In this document: one piece after another, positions 201 through 12,205 of the stretch
Layout: every line of letters starts with the position of its first letter
Position numbering within the stretch: the stretch's first letter is position 1
Virus genome (UHGV): UHGV-0203085
From: a virus
Reading direction: 5' to 3' (one strand)
DNA: 13,007 nt
The notes under the pieces: generated by a model
Database searches by the model: none
What the model was told of the DNA's origin: nothing
Seen by the model: the letters and a program-made list of their open reading frames with translations, nothing else
Position numbers and translations under genes: made by a program

Positions 201-334
201 TGTTGCATCTCCTGCAATAGTCGCTTCGATTGTTGCGTTTGGTGAAAGTGTCGCTTTTTGACGACACTAATCTAAAGTTGTACGCTGCTACACAGCAGCG
301 TAAGTCACTCAGTAAAATCCCAAACTATTGAACA

Positions 335-1707: not shown

Positions 1708-1744
1708 TAAGTGAATAGTAACCTATTATGTTGGGGGCGTGCAA
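1708..1744 (-). promoter_or_regulatory. promoter-like element D (minus orientation): TTGCAC, 18 nt, TACTAT, then conserved TTCACTTA
   Basis: Minus-strand reading cTTGCACgcccccaacataataggtTACTATtcactta. It has 3 mismatches to the 28-bp core shared by elements A and B, and its downstream 21 bp (cgtttcgataagtgaatagta, plus 1700-1720) matches the window-end copy C with one mismatch. It lies about 20-50 nt upstream of the ATG at 1689. Confidence 0.4.
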
Positions 1745-2107: not shown

Positions 2108-2143
2108 TTGCACACCCCAATATAATAGGGTACTATTCAGTTA
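2108..2143 (+). promoter_or_regulatory. promoter-like element A: TTGCAC, 17 nt, TACTAT, then conserved TCAGTTA
   Basis: The 28-bp core ccaatataatagggtactattcagttaa is identical to element B. -35-like TTGCAC at 2108-2113, -10-like TACTAT at 2131-2136; an embedded TATAAT lies in the spacer. It is followed by AGGAGG and the ATG at 2162. Confidence 0.45.
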
Positions 2144-2435: not shown

Positions 2436-2897
2436 TCATTCTGGCTTCGTAACCTTCGCCGCTCTACTTACCACCTCTACACCATCGGCATCAGTAACTT
2501 TAACGAAGTATTCACCGACAGCATTAACCGTCAGAGAAAGAGTCTCTTCCGGGGCATTTACTACTTCCTTTCCGTCCTTGTACCAGGTCAGCACATACGG
2601 TGCTTTGCCTGCCTTAGCCTCGACAGTGATGATTGCGCTGCCGTCTGCCAGTTCCGTGTCTTTCGGTTGCACGGAGAAATACACGTCGCCCGCGTCCGCC
2701 AGATACGGAATTTCATAAAGCATACCCGCCGCCGGTAGTGCAATACCAGTTTTATCCGCAAACGGCATATCGTCTACTGGTGTACCGAGTACACTTTCAT
2801 CTTCAATAAATACCACATTCTCGCCGGAGCCAGACACGCGGGCGTACTGGACTACGCGACGCGACGGCACATCAGTTACTTTGAAAAATCCCATCAT
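2436..2897 (-). CDS. Ig-like (BIG-type) domain protein, 153 aa, probable virion-associated or decoration protein
   Basis: ATG 2895-2897 overlaps the TAA of the upstream head morphogenesis gene (TAATG coupling). C-terminal YVLTWYKDGKEVVNA...TLSLTVNAVGEYFVKVTDADG has the alternating pattern of an Ig-like beta sandwich. Confidence 0.6.
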   Translation of the reverse strand: MMGFFKVTDVPSRRVVQYARVSGSGENVVFIEDESVLGTPVDDMPFADKTGIALPAAGMLYEIPYLADAGDVYFSVQPKDTELADGSAIITVEAKAGKAPYVLTWYKDGKEVVNAPEETLSLTVNAVGEYFVKVTDADGVEVVSRAAKVTKPE

Positions 2898-4756
2898 TAT
2901 TCCCCTTTCAGATAATCAGCAACACGTTTATCGAGTTCCGCCATCTGCTTAAGTGTCAGCGGATTCCCGAAACCATCTACAGATATTACGCGAAACTCTT
3001 CCGGCGATATACCGCTGTTACGGAAAATCTTACCTCGCACCGGGCCGAGTGCTTCATCCACGAACCATGCCGGTTGTTGTTCAAGGAACTCGTAGTAAGT
3101 GGTGTCCGCGCTTACCTGAGTACCGCCGTCCGCACCCTTAGCTGCGCGTTTCGCTCCTTTATCGAGGAAGTCGAACTCTGAACTGATCACAGGCGCGGTT
3201 GTTGAGCGGCAGTTATGTGCTATAATTCCATTAGCAAGATACCAGTTCTGTTCATTTTCGAGGTTATAAACATGCCCGCAAAAATCAGCTTCACTAAAGA
3301 CCAAATCGACAACATCATCAAGCTCTACACCGACGGCATCGGACCAGTTGAAATCGGAAAGATTATCGGCGTTTCGTGTAGTCCAGTCATACGCGTTCTC
3401 AGAGAGAACGGCGTTACCATTCGCGGAGGCAGCGACGCTATGTTCATCCGAATGGCTAAAGCTACTCCCGAGGAGCGCCTCGCTCTCTCCGCCGCGGCGC
3501 ATGAAGCTGTCCGAGGGAGAAAGGCCGACCATGCTGAACTGCTTCGCAGAGCCAAAGCCAGGGAGGGAGTCATCAACGCCGGCAGTCACTGGGAGTTCCT
3601 TGTCAATGATTTGCTTATTCAGTCCGGACTTGACTTTATCCCAGGAAAGGCGGTCGACAAGTACAATCTCGACTTCGCCGTCGGTACCGTCGCCGTGGAA
3701 GTCTTCGGGGGAGGTTGGGCTTGTACTGACCGCCGCCGGATTGACCGTTACATTAGCCGCACTAAACAAATCGGAGAACTTGGCTACAACGTTGTGTTCC
3801 TTATGCTTGAGAGAGAGCGCAGAGTCCTTAGCGCACACGAGCTTGTCACCTACATTGAGAAGGCCGGAAGCAACCCAACCACTGGCGGTCAATACCTGGT
3901 GGTTTGGGGTGATAGACAAGGTGCGACCGGACTTTGTAGAGACATAGACTATAGTGCCTTTGTACGCCCGTTTAAAAATGTTAGAAACAGGGCTACCGGT
4001 AGATACTACAGTGTCCCCAAGTAAACAATTAGGGTGGGCCGGAGGCATCGGCCCTTTACCAATTTCCCACGTCATCCCGTCCCTGGCTCTGCAAATCGTA
4101 CTGGTACGACTATCAAGCGTTGACACCCACTCGTATTTCTCGATGATGTCGTCGTTCTGGCGGTACGTCTCGTTGCGGGCCTCGTTGGATACGTGAGCCA
4201 GCGCGGTGCGGATTACGGTAGCTGCATTACGTTCAGAGATGTCCGCCAGTCCACCAGCGCCTACGACATTCTTAACAATCTGCCGTGTCGTCTGGCCTTG
4301 GACAAAGCCCATCTTAACGCCGGTTACCAGGCGCGATACTTCTGTTTCACCCCAGCCCGACATCAGCTTAGTGAAGTCAACCGGCTTGTCGCTTAATGAT
4401 AAGGGTTGAAACTCGGCAGCGGCCCATACCTGTTCCGCGGTAGGCGTAATAAACTCGGCGTTAACGTTGGTGGCCAGCGTTTTTACGTTCCACTCTGCCT
4501 CATAAGCCGCCAGTTCTTTAAGGTCTTCTGTCAGTTTTGTTTGCCAGTCACCCGTAAGTCCCGCCAGTGCTTCTTCGAGGTCGCGTAACAGCTTATTTAG
4601 CCGCGCGGTACTACGACCGTCGTCGCCGAATAACAGCACCTGCCGTTTGATTTCGTCCCGCATCTCCTTAAGGAACGGCGCGAGGTCTTTCACTTCACCG
4701 GATGCGGTGCGTTGCAGCCATATCTGGTGGCTGATTAGAGATGTAAGTAAGCTCAT
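2897..4756 (-). CDS. head morphogenesis protein (Phage Mu F / SPP1 gp7-like) interrupted by an intein
   Basis: Long minus ORF; best start is ATG 4754-4756 with AGGAGGG 3-4 nt upstream (track ORF begins at TTG 4813 with no RBS). The N-extein ends ...WVSTLDSRTSTICRARDGMTWEIGKGPMPPAHPN, which I recall as the Mu F signature preceding HPNCRC. The gene lies directly downstream of the portal gene, as expected by synteny. Confidence 0.8.
   Translation of the reverse strand: MSLLTSLISHQIWLQRTASGEVKDLAPFLKEMRDEIKRQVLLFGDDGRSTARLNKLLRDLEEALAGLTGDWQTKLTEDLKELAAYEAEWNVKTLATNVNAEFITPTAEQVWAAAEFQPLSLSDKPVDFTKLMSGWGETEVSRLVTGVKMGFVQGQTTRQIVKNVVGAGGLADISERNAATVIRTALAHVSNEARNETYRQNDDIIEKYEWVSTLDSRTSTICRARDGMTWEIGKGPMPPAHPNCLLGDTVVSTGSPVSNIFKRAYKGTIVYVSTKSGRTLSITPNHQVLTASGWVASGLLNVGDKLVCAKDSALSLKHKEHNVVAKFSDLFSAANVTVNPAAVSTSPTSPEDFHGDGTDGEVEIVLVDRLSWDKVKSGLNKQIIDKELPVTAGVDDSLPGFGSAKQFSMVGLSPSDSFMRRGGESEALLGSSFSHSDEHSVAASANGNAVLSENAYDWTTRNADNLSDFNWSDAVGVELDDVVDLVFSEADFCGHVYNLENEQNWYLANGIIAHNCRSTTAPVISSEFDFLDKGAKRAAKGADGGTQVSADTTYYEFLEQQPAWFVDEALGPVRGKIFRNSGISPEEFRVISVDGFGNPLTLKQMAELDKRVADYLKGE
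3212..4027 (-). mobile_element. intein, 272 codons (Cys1 ... His-Asn, +1 Cys)
   Basis: In-frame insertion beginning CLLGDTVVS (block A; Cys codon = plus 4025-4027), with TLSITPNHQVLT (block B, T-x-x-H) and GWVASGLLNVGDKLV in the N-terminal Hint part. The C-terminal Hint part is ADFCGHVYNLENEQNWYLANGIIAHN, followed by +1 Cys (plus 3209-3211). The central region is S/A/D/G-rich with no LAGLIDADG, HNH or GIY-YIG motifs. Confidence 0.75.
3272..4024 (+). CDS. antisense-nested ORF, 250 aa: HTH plus DUF559/Vsr-like (PD-(D/E)xK-type) putative homing endonuclease
   Basis: ATG 3272 with GAGG about 8 nt upstream (an in-frame ATG at 3215 gives the 269-aa track ORF). N-terminal HTH-like IGPVEIGKIIGVSCSPVIRVLRENGV. 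Central block WEFLVNDLLIQSGLDF...YNLDFAVGTVAVEVFGGGW...RRRIDRYISRTKQIGELGYNVVFL matches the DUF559/Vsr pattern (D-F ... hEhDG.W ... R ... GY.V) as I remember it. The ORF is bounded by antisense stops at 3203-3205 and 4022-4024, so it spans the intein to within 2 codons. Confidence 0.55.
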   Translation: MPAKISFTKDQIDNIIKLYTDGIGPVEIGKIIGVSCSPVIRVLRENGVTIRGGSDAMFIRMAKATPEERLALSAAAHEAVRGRKADHAELLRRAKAREGVINAGSHWEFLVNDLLIQSGLDFIPGKAVDKYNLDFAVGTVAVEVFGGGWACTDRRRIDRYISRTKQIGELGYNVVFLMLERERRVLSAHELVTYIEKAGSNPTTGGQYLVVWGDRQGATGLCRDIDYSAFVRPFKNVRNRATGRYYSVPK

Positions 4757-4800: not shown

Positions 4801-4836
4801 TTGCAGACACCAATATAATAGGGTACTATTCAGTTA
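4801..4836 (+). promoter_or_regulatory. promoter-like element B: TTGCAG, 17 nt, TACTAT, then conserved TCAGTTA
   Basis: The 28-bp core (4809-4836) is identical to element A. It lies in the divergent intergenic region between the head morphogenesis start (4756, minus) and the + ORF at 4861. Confidence 0.45.
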
Positions 4837-10699: not shown

Positions 10700-10732
10700 T
10701 AAAAAAAATCCCGGCTGGGTCAGGGCCGGGAT
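10700..10732 (-). terminator. strong intrinsic terminator for the lysis operon (8-bp stem ATCCCGGC / GCCGGGAT then eight U)
   Basis: Stem at 10708-10715 and 10725-10732 with a 9-nt loop; on the minus strand it is followed by TTTTTTTT (plus 10700-10707); 65 nt downstream of the lysozyme stop. Confidence 0.65.
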
Positions 10733-10796: not shown

Positions 10797-11285
10797 TCAA
10801 CCTTTCACCGCACGCCCGATAGCCTCAGCCTCCTGCCACGGTTTACCGTCGAACAGCGCCAGACGACCGGCGGTACGGCGGCGCAGGCCAAGCAACGGTT
10901 TGCCGTTCTGGTTGATGAACCGCGCCAGCTTAGCCCGCAGCGTCGCAATATCGCCCGAGCGCAACGCCTTACCTGTTCCGGTAGTAGCGGCAATCACACC
11001 CGCGCCTGCGTTATAGACCAGGTCGCACACTGCATCGAACTGTGCTTGTGTCAGTGAATGGTTCGCTGCTGCGTCAACCGCGGCTACGGCCTTAGCCATA
11101 TCGCGATTCAGTAACAGGAGACCTTGGCCTGGGGTGATGGTCTTGCCTGGAGTTACATCTGGCCCGTAATGACCGTAACCAATAGTCAGGTACTTCTCGT
11201 TCGGTGTAGCACGATACACAGTTCCACGGAATCCCTCAAACGCGGCGGTAAAATGCAATCCATTATCTGAAATATTTCGAGACAC
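10797..11285 (-). CDS. endolysin, GH24 phage lysozyme (P22 gp19-like), about 162 aa
   Basis: Motifs ISDNGLHFTAAFEGFRGTVYRA...YLTIGYGHY...GKTITPGQ...LTQAQFDAVCDLVYNAGAG...GLRRRTAGRLALF follow the P22-type lysozyme pattern from memory. The likely start is GTG 11283-11285 with GGAGGG 7 nt upstream; the track ORF extends further upstream without an RBS. Confidence 0.8.
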   Translation of the reverse strand: MSRNISDNGLHFTAAFEGFRGTVYRATPNEKYLTIGYGHYGPDVTPGKTITPGQGLLLLNRDMAKAVAAVDAAANHSLTQAQFDAVCDLVYNAGAGVIAATTGTGKALRSGDIATLRAKLARFINQNGKPLLGLRRRTAGRLALFDGKPWQEAEAIGRAVKG

Positions 11286-11535
11286 GCTTATTCCCTCCGT
11301 ATGACAGCCACGCCTGGCGAATCTGGCGTAGCGCAACTAATGTGATTAACGTCTCAGGCAACGTGGGTGACATGCTGCCCTGTAACAGGTGGATACATCC
11401 GGCGGCGCAGACAATAGCGGTCAGGATATAGAGCACCCGACCAAATAGCCCGTCGTCAACGCTGGGATGATACACATTAAACAGCGATGTCCCCCCGATT
11501 GCCAGCATACCGCCGAACCAGAATAACTCATTCAT
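11263..11535 (-). CDS. second holin-like membrane protein, 90 aa (holin or antiholin candidate)
   Basis: ATG 11533-11535 overlaps the end of the upstream holin gene (ATGAATGA); two hydrophobic segments (FWFGGMLAIGGTSLF and VLYILTAIVCAAGCIHLL) and a basic C-terminus; the track ORF 11263..11715 is an N-terminally over-extended version. Confidence 0.45.
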   Translation of the reverse strand: MNELFWFGGMLAIGGTSLFNVYHPSVDDGLFGRVLYILTAIVCAAGCIHLLQGSMSPTLPETLITLVALRQIRQAWLSYGGNKRVSKYFR

Positions 11536-11836
11536 CTGTACCCCCTCGACGTGCGATGTATTCCCCAGCGACGATACCGGAGAGACGGGAATAGATAGGC
11601 ATCCAGAGAATAGCGATAATGAAGCCCAGGCCAGCGATTTCACGGTCGCCCGTGATGCCGAACCATTGAGCTGCGAGAGGTGCACCAAATACGGCGCAAG
11701 TGAAGCCGGTTGCAATAAAGCAGAAGCCGTCTATGGGGCCGGAAATAACGGACTTATGTTGTCGTAGCCCGATTACCCCTCCGGCGAGTGCGGCAGCGAG
11801 AAGCCACCCCGTCACTGTTTCAGTAAATTTATCCAA
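11528..11836 (-). CDS. holin (putative, three hydrophobic segments), 102 aa
   Basis: TTG start 11834-11836 with GGAGGA 6 nt upstream; hydrophobic helices and a charged C-terminal tail; first gene of the holin-holin-lysozyme cassette. Confidence 0.55.
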   Translation of the reverse strand: MDKFTETVTGWLLAAALAGGVIGLRQHKSVISGPIDGFCFIATGFTCAVFGAPLAAQWFGITGDREIAGLGFIIAILWMPIYSRLSGIVAGEYIARRGGTDE

Positions 11837-11842
11837 GATGAA

Positions 11843-11880
11843 TCCTCCAGGTGCGTATTAAGTATGCAGTAACTGGAGGA
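11843..11880 (-). promoter_or_regulatory. RBS-sequestering hairpin in the holin leader (anti-SD UCCUCCAG pairs with SD CUGGAGGA)
   Basis: Perfect 8-bp inverted repeat, plus 11843-11850 tcctccag and 11873-11880 ctggagga, separated by 22 nt; on the minus-strand mRNA the downstream arm is the holin Shine-Dalgarno. Confidence 0.35.
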
Positions 11881-11911
11881 TACCACGGGTAGGAATTATC
11901 CTAATAACGGT

Positions 11912-12205
11912 TTATTTATGTCTCCAGATGTATTGTCGTCTCTGCGGTTTCGTCGGAATATCATCGTACCCCAGCGATTTCCAGTAATTAAATAGCCGAT
12001 TAGCGATAGCAGCGCGTTCTGGTGTTTTAAACTCACCGAGATTCACGGCCTTCCCATTCTGGAATCCACAGGCGCGGACAGCTTTGCGTCGGGCCTGAAC
12101 CTCTGGGTACAGCGCGTTACCCCGGCGTTTGTATATTCTGGTGTTCGCCCTCGGTGACAGCGGGGCAAGGCCACTTCGTTTCAGGATGTCAGTTGCGAGT
12201 GTCAT
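11912..12205 (-). CDS. putative DNA-binding protein with AP2-like (or integrase arm-like) motif, 97 aa
   Basis: ATG 12203-12205; segment RACGFQNGKAVNLGEFKTPERAAIANRLF resembles the G-K-x-x-x-L-G-x-F-x-T-x-E-x-A-A core of AP2 / HNH-associated DNA-binding domains (from memory). Confidence 0.45.
   Translation of the reverse strand: MTLATDILKRSGLAPLSPRANTRIYKRRGNALYPEVQARRKAVRACGFQNGKAVNLGEFKTPERAAIANRLFNYWKSLGYDDIPTKPQRRQYIWRHK

Follow-up and report, generated by a model that had tools for sequence, protein, structure and literature searches.

The window, a 13,007-nt stretch of virus genome UHGV-0203085 analysed at its whole length, comes from a mosaic Kagunavirus-type siphophage (Guernseyvirinae) that is ~90-93% identical to many E. 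coli phages, and its minus strand holds all the genes relevant here. The first lysis gene, which encodes a holin, carries its Shine-Dalgarno (SD) sequence in the 3' arm of a perfect hairpin, and we found comparable hairpins at the head of the lysis cassette in five phage lineages. Comparison of these sequences indicates that the pairing itself is under selection, and this selected pairing most likely acts as RNA on the holin sense strand. The explanation that we prefer, and to which we give about an even chance, is an arrangement of the kind known from T4 gene e, in which the SD would be occluded on RNA that reads through from upstream, while the cassette would have its own mRNA lacking the anti-SD arm. 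The hairpin would then most likely silence only stray early transcripts and not the working lysis mRNA.

The hairpin and its conservation

A reading made from the window's sequence alone had claimed that the holin gene joins a strong GGAGGA SD to a TTG start codon, and that the SD can pair perfectly with a segment 22 nt away in an 8-bp stem. Both initiation signals are real and the pairing is present: UCCUCCAG (11880-11873) pairs with CUGGAGGA (11850-11843), 22 nt apart, and an additional pair, A11881-U11842, extends the stem to 9 perfect base pairs, five of them G-C. The SD is separated from the TTG at 11836-11834 by 6 nt (UUCAUC, closing U11842 included). We take this TTG to be the true start, since it does not vary in >80 relatives and since homologues with the same N-terminus (MDK.. 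in Dhillonvirus, (M)DDK.. in Jerseyvirus) have an ATG or GTG at the aligned position.

RNA folding bears out, in silico, the occlusion of the SD that had been proposed. The hairpin is present in both the minimum free energy and the centroid structure (RNAfold) and by itself has a dG of -14.2 kcal/mol; the 53-nt region has a z-score of -3.7, and none of 200 shuffles folded as well. On a read-through RNA spanning -120 to +40, the probability that the SD is unpaired is 0.002, and opening the segment from the SD through start+5 would require 12.8 kcal/mol. When the ~35 heuristically called genes of the window were compared, the holin SD was the least accessible among the credible ones (mean probability unpaired 0.07). 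A 9-bp repeat by itself is not beyond chance, as the 13-kb window holds two perfect inverted repeats (stem ≥9 bp, loop ≤30 nt) versus 0.8 +/- 0.8 in Markov simulations; the weight of this one comes from its position on the SD and from its conservation. The other perfect 9-bp short-loop inverted repeat of the window lies at 281-302 (minus strand; TACGCTGCTgtgtAGCAGCGTA) and has no U-tract.

Conservation within the window's own lineage (K) was assessed in >80 genomes and metagenome contigs with holins down to 76% amino-acid identity, and diversity was calculated from 45 unique relatives. The hairpin sits in a conserved 70-nt block (Table 1) that is ~10-fold less diverse than synonymous sites. 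Nucleotide diversity is 0.005 in the 5' arm, 0.020 in the loop and 0.000 in the 3' arm, compared with 0.348 at third codon positions of the holin gene. The ~17-fold reduction in the loop implies that the loop sequence itself is constrained. The few changes in the stem are mostly tolerated by pairing: an A->G change in the 5' arm of two relatives (L041 and L119) gives a G·U pair, and a CCAG->CUGG change in a 66%-identity outlier (L074) gives two, while loop changes in L027, LSPA1 and L074 extend the stem to 11-14 bp. The block is unchanged whether it stands behind a gene for a 97-amino-acid (97-aa) protein, as in the window, behind an HslV-like peptidase gene, or behind a truncated gene of the typical Jerseyvirus (J1) type, as in Salmonella phage LSPA1. 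It thus appears to be a module that travels with the holin gene.

Several rearrangements were seen at this junction. About one third of relatives carry a gene for an HslV/NTN-hydrolase-like peptidase between the 97-aa gene and the holin junction (for example, L043 646-1086), and typical Jerseyviruses carry such a gene at the same place. LSPA1 (L044, NC_026017) has two junctions in tandem at 860-1386. The first comprises a Jerseyvirus-type hairpin and the first 32 codons of a Jerseyvirus-type gene; the second comprises the Kagunavirus-type 70-nt block and a TTG holin that is unannotated in the RefSeq record. The left recombination boundary lies at TATTAGGAT, as in genomes with the HslV-like gene upstream. 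Phage fTaEco03 (L002, MT711528) has a ~300-nt tandem duplication at 2040-2420 that covers the end of the 97-aa gene, the entire junction and the first ~35 holin codons; the resulting truncated 43-codon open reading frame is annotated 'putative antiholin/holin class II protein'.

Beyond K, the hairpin heads the lysis cassette in typical Jerseyviruses (J1), in group J2, in Dhillonvirus (D; holin 45-50% identity) and in lineage KL (Klebsiella KLB22, E. coli KW1E and metagenomes; ~35% identity). All five lineages have an SD-like G-run in the 3' arm, 5-11 nt before the first lysis gene, and fold z-scores across lineages range from -2.8 to -6.7. The stem sequences differ among lineages through compensatory and G·U changes (Table 1); in J2 alone, the upper stem occurs in three compensating versions, GUAGUG/CAUUAC and GUAGGG/CCUUAC among them. 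A covariance model built only from K detected the J1 hairpins with E = 0.01-0.055. In the resulting K-J1 alignment, all 8 pairs are kept, 3 of them via changes on both sides, and one pair occurs as A-U, G·U, A·C and G-C; the observed pairing was reached by 0 of 2000 shuffles. J1 was aligned convincingly by this model; KL came out with its register slipped, and D and J2 were not detected. Cross-lineage MAFFT alignments placed the arms out of register and were excluded from the pair counts.

Which strand folds better bears on whether the repeat acts as RNA or as DNA. In L074 the sense strand folds to -13.8 kcal/mol versus -4.5 kcal/mol for the antisense strand, owing to G·U pairs. Among nine hairpins from J, D and KL, the sense strand is better by 1.9-3.5 kcal/mol in seven, with one tie (J1_L082) and one that is slightly better antisense (KL_L073). 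This advantage, being based on G·U pairs, favours RNA over a DNA palindrome.

At greater distance the arrangement changes. In the holin relatives Pantoea MED16 and L078 the SD is free and a separate terminator stands 30-70 nt ahead of it, and no hairpin analogue was found in Pectobacterium Wc4-1 and L079. An exhaustive HMMER search of the holin family yielded only 19 clusters at 50% identity, and holin-family scans with P0025 and P0034 gave no new members. The D, KL, J1 and J2 loops share an A/C-rich motif (CUAAAAC, CUAACAC, GUAAACCAAC and GAAACCAAC; L045 615-620, L065 ~558-564, L080 561-570) despite their differing stems. Such over-conserved loops could be a 5'-untranslated region (5'-UTR) enhancer, a ribosome standby site or a binding site.

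Promoter-like and terminator-like elements at the junction

In every lineage the DNA that encodes the 5' arm also carries an element of the -10 type, namely TG[g/c]TATCCT in K, TG[t/c/a]TAA[T/C]CT in the two J groups, TGaTATAGT in D and, behind a -35, TAnnAT in KL. In K, J1, J2 and D the arm is preceded without a gap by TGnTA, the signature of an extended -10, with TG, T-12, A-11 and T-7 invariant. Its 'n' is polymorphic (25 G and 20 C in K, at position 11883; t/c in J1; a/c in J2), and the polymorphism removes, with no compensating change, a G·U pair by which the stem could be extended, which favours reading the signature as promoter over reading it as structure. In KL, a TTGACC -35 and a TAnnAT -10 are invariant across four unrelated spacers of 17-18 nt. 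This KL promoter lies in non-coding DNA right after the upstream stop codon, its -10 abuts or overlaps the first stem bases, and a scan tool calls it as overlapping the hairpin.

A count of 7 nt from each hexamer makes the predicted +1 a purine in all lineages, located where the 5' arm ends distally; for the window this is A11870, inside the loop. RNA beginning there would lack the anti-SD arm, and its SD is predicted to be more accessible. For the window, the opening cost is 8.8 rather than 12.8 kcal/mol and the SD has a probability of 0.17, up from 0.002, of being unpaired. This probability goes from 0.000-0.014 on read-through RNA to 0.31-0.59 from the predicted +1 in LSPA1, D and KL, with opening energies of 11-20 kcal/mol for the long RNA versus 3-6.5 kcal/mol for the short one. 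For the outlier L074 the corresponding values are 0.28 and 0.58, and 5.4 versus 4.8 kcal/mol.

The hairpins differ widely in terminator character. We scored the classical stem plus tail with a formula after d'Aubenton-Carafa 1990, and the phage's own canonical terminator behind the endolysin gene, which is entry T21 in PMC9825357, Suppl. Table S2, served as an internal positive control. Against its +45, the D hairpin scores +34, KL +20 to +33, L074 -0.7 (borderline), LSPA1 -16 and the window -32. Stems in D, KL and J1 are G+C-rich with a short loop, and in these three lineages the hairpin and its U-tract look like a canonical intrinsic terminator; a terminator scan calls the D and KL hairpins, not that of the window. 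The window hairpin has neither hallmark of an intrinsic terminator, as its loop measures 22 nt instead of ~3-8 nt and there is no uninterrupted U-tract; its tail UUCAUCUU has a tail score of 2.76 versus 6.09 for the phage's own terminator. The J2 hairpin is without any U-tract. Termination is thus a plausible function in J1, D and KL, and it does not explain why the hairpin is kept in K and J2. In the Center for Phage Technology annotation of Jerseyvirus Shelanagig (NC_073195), a terminator is marked at 39324-39360, with a ribosome-binding site (RBS) inside it at 39347-39350 and the coding sequence from 39361.

Weighing the explanations

In the T4-like explanation, the hairpin would be part of a compact junction between the co-directional upstream operon and the lysis cassette, and would insulate the holin from upstream, presumably earlier, transcription. 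Polymerases entering from upstream would transcribe both arms, the anti-SD arm would pair with the SD, and the read-through RNA would make no holin; in the sister lineages, the hairpin with its U-tract would also terminate most of this RNA. The cassette's own promoter would have its -10 on the DNA encoding the 5' arm (TGgTATCCT, 11885-11877), so that its mRNA would start near A11870 in the loop, without the anti-SD arm and with GGAGGA free. The TTG start would hold holin output of the window moderate, as TTG, GTG, weak SDs or long spacers may likewise do across lineages. We infer the start of transcription, the read-through from upstream and the effects on translation and timing from the arrangement of these elements. 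This explanation is preferred because the stem is conserved in structure and not in sequence, because of the covariation, the promoter motifs on the 5' arm and the cost that the stem would impose on translation, and because gene order and the T4 precedent agree with it. Gene order is compatible with read-through, in that the packed co-directional operon ends 30 nt before the hairpin and the cassette is self-terminated.

The closest precedent is found in T4, where experiments have shown that the RBSs of gene e, soc, 49 and I-TevI are occluded on early read-through transcripts (McPheeters et al. 1986, reviewed in PMC3014915); for gene e, the structure lowers translation ~100-fold, and the DNA for the hairpin's 5' strand carries late promoters (PMC3014915). 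Here, too, a lysis gene stands behind co-directional earlier genes with an SD-sequestering hairpin and a promoter element on the 5' strand, and the rationale would again be the avoidance of premature lysis. The two systems differ in that the gene is a holin here and an endolysin in T4, that the predicted promoter is of the host sigma70 type (extended -10 or -35/-10) rather than the gp55-dependent TATAAATA, and that three sister lineages add a terminator-like U-tract; the present arrangement is predicted from sequence.

The sequence-only reading had likened the hairpin to lambda S, in which access to the GGGGG SD for Met1 is governed by the 'sdi' stem-loop (bioRxiv 10.1101/2025.05.14.654169). 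The likeness holds for a stem-loop with the SD just upstream of a holin start and for low holin translation, and it is looser than that with T4 gene e. Lambda divides initiation over two start codons in one frame (S107, the antiholin, and S105, the holin), whereas the holin here, beginning (M)DKFTETVTGW, has no second Met, and its next start-like codon is a GTG at codon 8 without an SD. The hairpin here is also longer, with 9 bp and a 22-nt loop compared with lambda nt -21 to -7, and it overlaps promoter- and terminator-like elements. In mRNAs of type I toxins such as tisB and hok, ribosomes do not translate the full-length RNA, and the active form is one shortened at its 5' end. They share with the holin a small membrane-damaging product and an RBS sequestered in the longer RNA isoform. 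Activation in the toxins proceeds by RNA processing and is opposed by antisense RNA, whereas the shorter isoform here would come from a second promoter, and no antisense partner of that type was found here. Shelanagig offers the homologous junction of a sister genus, in which the SD makes up the 3' arm and the U-tract fills the distance from SD to start; the window differs by its 22-nt loop, its interrupted U-tract and a score far below that of the phage's own terminator.

A number of observations weigh against the T4-like explanation. The K -10, TATCCT, agrees with the consensus in four of six bases and lacks a good -35; pairing with the SD region is a further constraint on five of the six, and ~13 copies of TGNTANNNT are expected by chance on each strand of 13 kb. 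In RNA that starts at the predicted +1 of the window, some pairing of the SD with codons ~8-12 is still predicted. The alternative -10, GATAAT, would place the whole hairpin in the mRNA if used. Covariation within K is not significant, with 7 of 9 pairs never varying and shuffles equalling the observed pairing; one metagenome relative (L127) has a U->C change in the 3' arm that breaks a pair as an A·C mismatch; and in the main K group, the antisense fold equals or betters the sense fold. The loop is conserved far beyond what a spacer needs, which the model accounts for loosely, as 5'-UTR. A literature search found no transcription start sites, RNA-seq or transcript maps for Kagunavirus, Jerseyvirus and Dhillonvirus. 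In addition, the in-silico promoter and terminator lists for fBC-Eco01 (PMC9825357) contain nothing in the gap before the holin.

A possible, if doubtful, alternative is that the hairpin belongs to the working holin mRNA, made by read-through or from the GATAAT promoter (11900-11895), and acts, with the TTG start, as a constant throttle that sets lysis time; a ribosome standby site may then be provided by the conserved, A/C-rich loop. This is close to what the sequence-only reading had proposed, namely a device to restrain or time holin translation. The hairpin and the SD occlusion are real, and the conservation of the pairing in five lineages gives substance to that proposal. Its assumption that the 5' arm is part of the working mRNA is not supported as it was stated: -10-type elements lie on that arm, the hairpin looks like a canonical terminator in three lineages, and an opening cost of ~13 kcal/mol combined with TTG predicts near-silence if all the mRNA has the hairpin. 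In T4 gene e, a structure of this kind costs ~100-fold (PMC3014915). A throttle would account for J2 and K keeping the hairpin without a good U-tract, which points to selection for something besides termination, as well as for the strong conservation of the loop, the A/C-rich motif shared by the D, KL and J loops, the invariance of GATAAT in most K genomes, and the presence in each lineage of a sub-optimal initiation feature (TTG, GTG, weak SD or long spacer). Lambda S also shows that lysis time can be set by the rate of holin translation (bioRxiv 10.1101/2025.05.14.654169). On the other hand, the upstream stop codon, 30 nt from the arm, is too distant for a terminating ribosome to melt the stem; most upstream RNA in J1, D and KL would end before the start codon; the conserved TGnTA and -35/-10 elements on the 5' arm would be left unexplained; and the -35 of GATAAT is not kept where the HslV-like gene lies upstream, and L074 has GATACC in place of GATAAT.

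We think it unlikely that the hairpin serves solely as a leaky intrinsic terminator or attenuator at the end of the upstream operon, with the SD overlap a by-product of packing and no role in translation. The D, KL and J1 hairpins do score +20 to +34, D and KL are called by the scan, Shelanagig is annotated with an RBS inside its terminator, and the distant relatives MED16 and L078 have a separate terminator upstream. Nevertheless, the window hairpin is a poor terminator by loop, tail, score and scan alike, J2 keeps its stem through compensatory changes without a U-tract, and the SD-like G-run is in the 3' arm in five of five lineages. It is improbable, too, that the inverted repeat or its loop binds a phage or host factor (as a DNA operator over the promoter, or as an RNA hairpin for a protein or small RNA) or acts as a 5' stabilising or processing element. 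Such a role would fit the low diversity of the entire 70-nt block, loop included, the spacing of the arm centres at 31 bp (~3 helical turns) and the antisense fold of the main K group, which is as stable as the sense fold. Against it, the DNA is not symmetrical where pairs exist as G·U only (L041, L074, J, D and KL), the stems differ between lineages and are ill-suited to a shared protein site, and RNase III would need a longer stem. Within the window, only chance 7-mers are complementary to the loop, and a search of the Rfam 15 covariance models, riboswitches and leaders included, gave no family match, the sole match being a chance snoRNA on the opposite strand (E = 3.7).

A long shot is that the junction works as an active lysis timer and not as passive insulation, in which a late phage protein or RNA binds the unusually conserved loop (its A/C-rich motif in D, KL and J, or the 22-nt loop of K) and opens or locks the SD, or switches between terminator and anti-terminator. 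If this were true, holin synthesis would be gated in trans in virulent siphophages without their own RNA polymerase. 

A lambdoid Q-type late antitermination unit (pR'-tR') was considered as well; its geometry would be matched by the GATAAT candidate with the hairpin behind it. The KL promoter abuts the hairpin, and its RNA therefore cannot contain the terminator. The three upstream proteins gave no convincing Pfam hit, and no genome-wide search for a Q homologue was made.

The class of mechanism is known; its implementation and the phage groups are new. Our literature search found no paper describing this junction, and the one GenBank annotation that touches it marks the J1 hairpin as an RBS-containing terminator. 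Lysis timing decides phage fitness and matters for therapeutic phages, and the coliphages and salmonella phages isolated most often include Kagunavirus, Jerseyvirus and Dhillonvirus. If the T4-like explanation is right, a form of insulation so far known only in T4-type phages, which have a late sigma factor of their own, would also exist in host-polymerase-dependent siphophages, built from a sigma70 promoter, a terminator-like hairpin and an SD within ~50 nt and moving as a unit with the holin gene; the junction would then offer a ~70-nt target for mutational tuning of lysis time. For annotation, the results suggest a simple rule: an unannotated TTG or GTG gene behind the hairpin is the first lysis gene, such as the one missing from the LSPA1 RefSeq record.

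Genes and sequence features around the junction

Table 1. Coordinates of junction and cassette features in the window, and stems and junctions of the five lineages.
Feature	Position	Strand	Sequence or evidence
97-aa gene, last gene of co-directional upstream operon	11912..12205	-	PHROG 9632, function not assigned
Conserved regulatory block, 70 nt	11837..11906	-	nucleotide diversity 0.033
Alternative -10 candidate GATAAT	11895..11900	-	GAGACA 18 nt upstream
Candidate extended -10, overlapping 5' arm	11877..11885	-	TGgTATCCT; predicted +1 A11870
Hairpin 5' arm (anti-SD)	11873..11881	-	AUCCUCCAG; sequence and RNAfold
Hairpin loop, 22 nt	11851..11872	-	UUACUGCAUACUUAAUACGCAC; contains predicted +1 A11870
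Hairpin 3' arm	11842..11850	-	CUGGAGGAU; contains SD GGAGGA at 11848-11843
Tail: spacer and start	11834..11841	-	UCAUC (11841-11837) and UUG (11836-11834); U-tract weak, interrupted
First lysis gene, holin-like membrane protein, 102 aa	11528..11836	-	PHROG 2359 'holin', E = 4e-29
Second holin	11535-11263	-	PHROG 2508
Endolysin	11285-10797	-	PF00959
Canonical intrinsic terminator closing lysis cassette	10701..10731	-	UCCCGGC..GCCGGGA + U8; score +45
K stem			AUCCUCCAG/CUGGAGGAU
J1 stem (typical Jerseyviruses)			AAUCUCCG(AAG)/(UUU)CGGAGAUU
J1 junction			aTG[t/c]TAATCTCCGAAGgtaaaccaacTTTCGGAGATTTTTTATTGTG
J2 stem			CUCCGUAUGG/CUAUACGGAG
J2 junction			TG[a/c]TAA[T/C]CTCCGTATGGaaaccaaCCTATACGGAGtcctctcaccgATG
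D stem (Dhillonvirus)			AGUCCCAGUGAG/CUUACUGGGACU
D junction (arms and start in capitals)			gTGaTATAGTCCCAGTGAGctaaaaCTTACTGGGACTTTTTTATG
KL stems (Klebsiella KLB22, E. coli KW1E, metagenomes)			UCCCCGGA/UUCGGGGA, GCCCCGGUAA/UUAUCGGGGU, AUCCCCAAA/UUUGGGGAU
KL junction			TTGACC-17/18-TA(C/A)(T/C)AT, then stem, U7-8, ATG

The upstream operon consists of tightly packed small genes and ends at 11912, leaving a gap of 75 nt to the lysis cassette, whose order is holin, holin, endolysin (the part 3' of the first holin spans 10797..11535, minus strand). Records of relatives name the first lysis gene 'class II holin-like'. About 22 nt past the cassette terminator lies a strong sigma70 promoter, TTGACT-17-TATATT (10678-10650, minus strand). 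With its own terminator and a new promoter behind it, the lysis cassette is thus taken to be a separate transcription unit. Past that promoter come ~2 kb of small genes, and then terminase, a portal-like gene and a head-morphogenesis gene.

Two further candidates near the junction were rejected. A small upstream hairpin, UUAGGAUAAUUCCUAA (11903-11888), was discarded as a conserved structure, as both of its common polymorphisms break a pair and it is absent from L074; translational coupling of the holin to the upstream gene was discarded, the stop codon of the 97-aa gene lying 30 nt ahead of the hairpin.

Within the cassette, the ATG of the second holin overlaps the stop codon of the first (ATGAATGA; region 11528-11547, minus strand), which suggests that the two holin-like genes are translationally coupled. 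The SD of the second holin, GAGGGGG (11547-11541, minus strand), is mostly paired in predicted folds (probability unpaired 0.12). Directly 5' of it, in the holin coding region, a second arm pair resembles the junction hairpin, UAUUCUCUGG ... CUGGGGAAUA with a ~34-nt loop (11559-11612, minus strand); the K-derived covariance model matched its counterpart in L027 (1721-1783) with E = 0.03. An arm pair inside the holin coding sequence may be a coincidence.

An 18-mer, TGAATAGTA[A/C]CCTATTAT, occurs three times in the window, at 1712-1729 (plus strand), 2122-2139 (minus) and 4815-4832 (minus), compared with a chance expectation of 0.01, and contains the palindrome AATAG..CTATT. It is the repeated 'phage promoter' motif that PHIRE reports seven times in Kagunavirus fBC-Eco01 (PMC9825357, Table S2), and it is absent from the holin junction. 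Farther along the window, the Mu-F-like head-morphogenesis protein (PF04233; gene 2897-4756, minus strand) also matches the intein splicing domain PF14890 over residues 252-515 (E = 1e-9), which suggests that an intein is inserted in the product of this structural gene.

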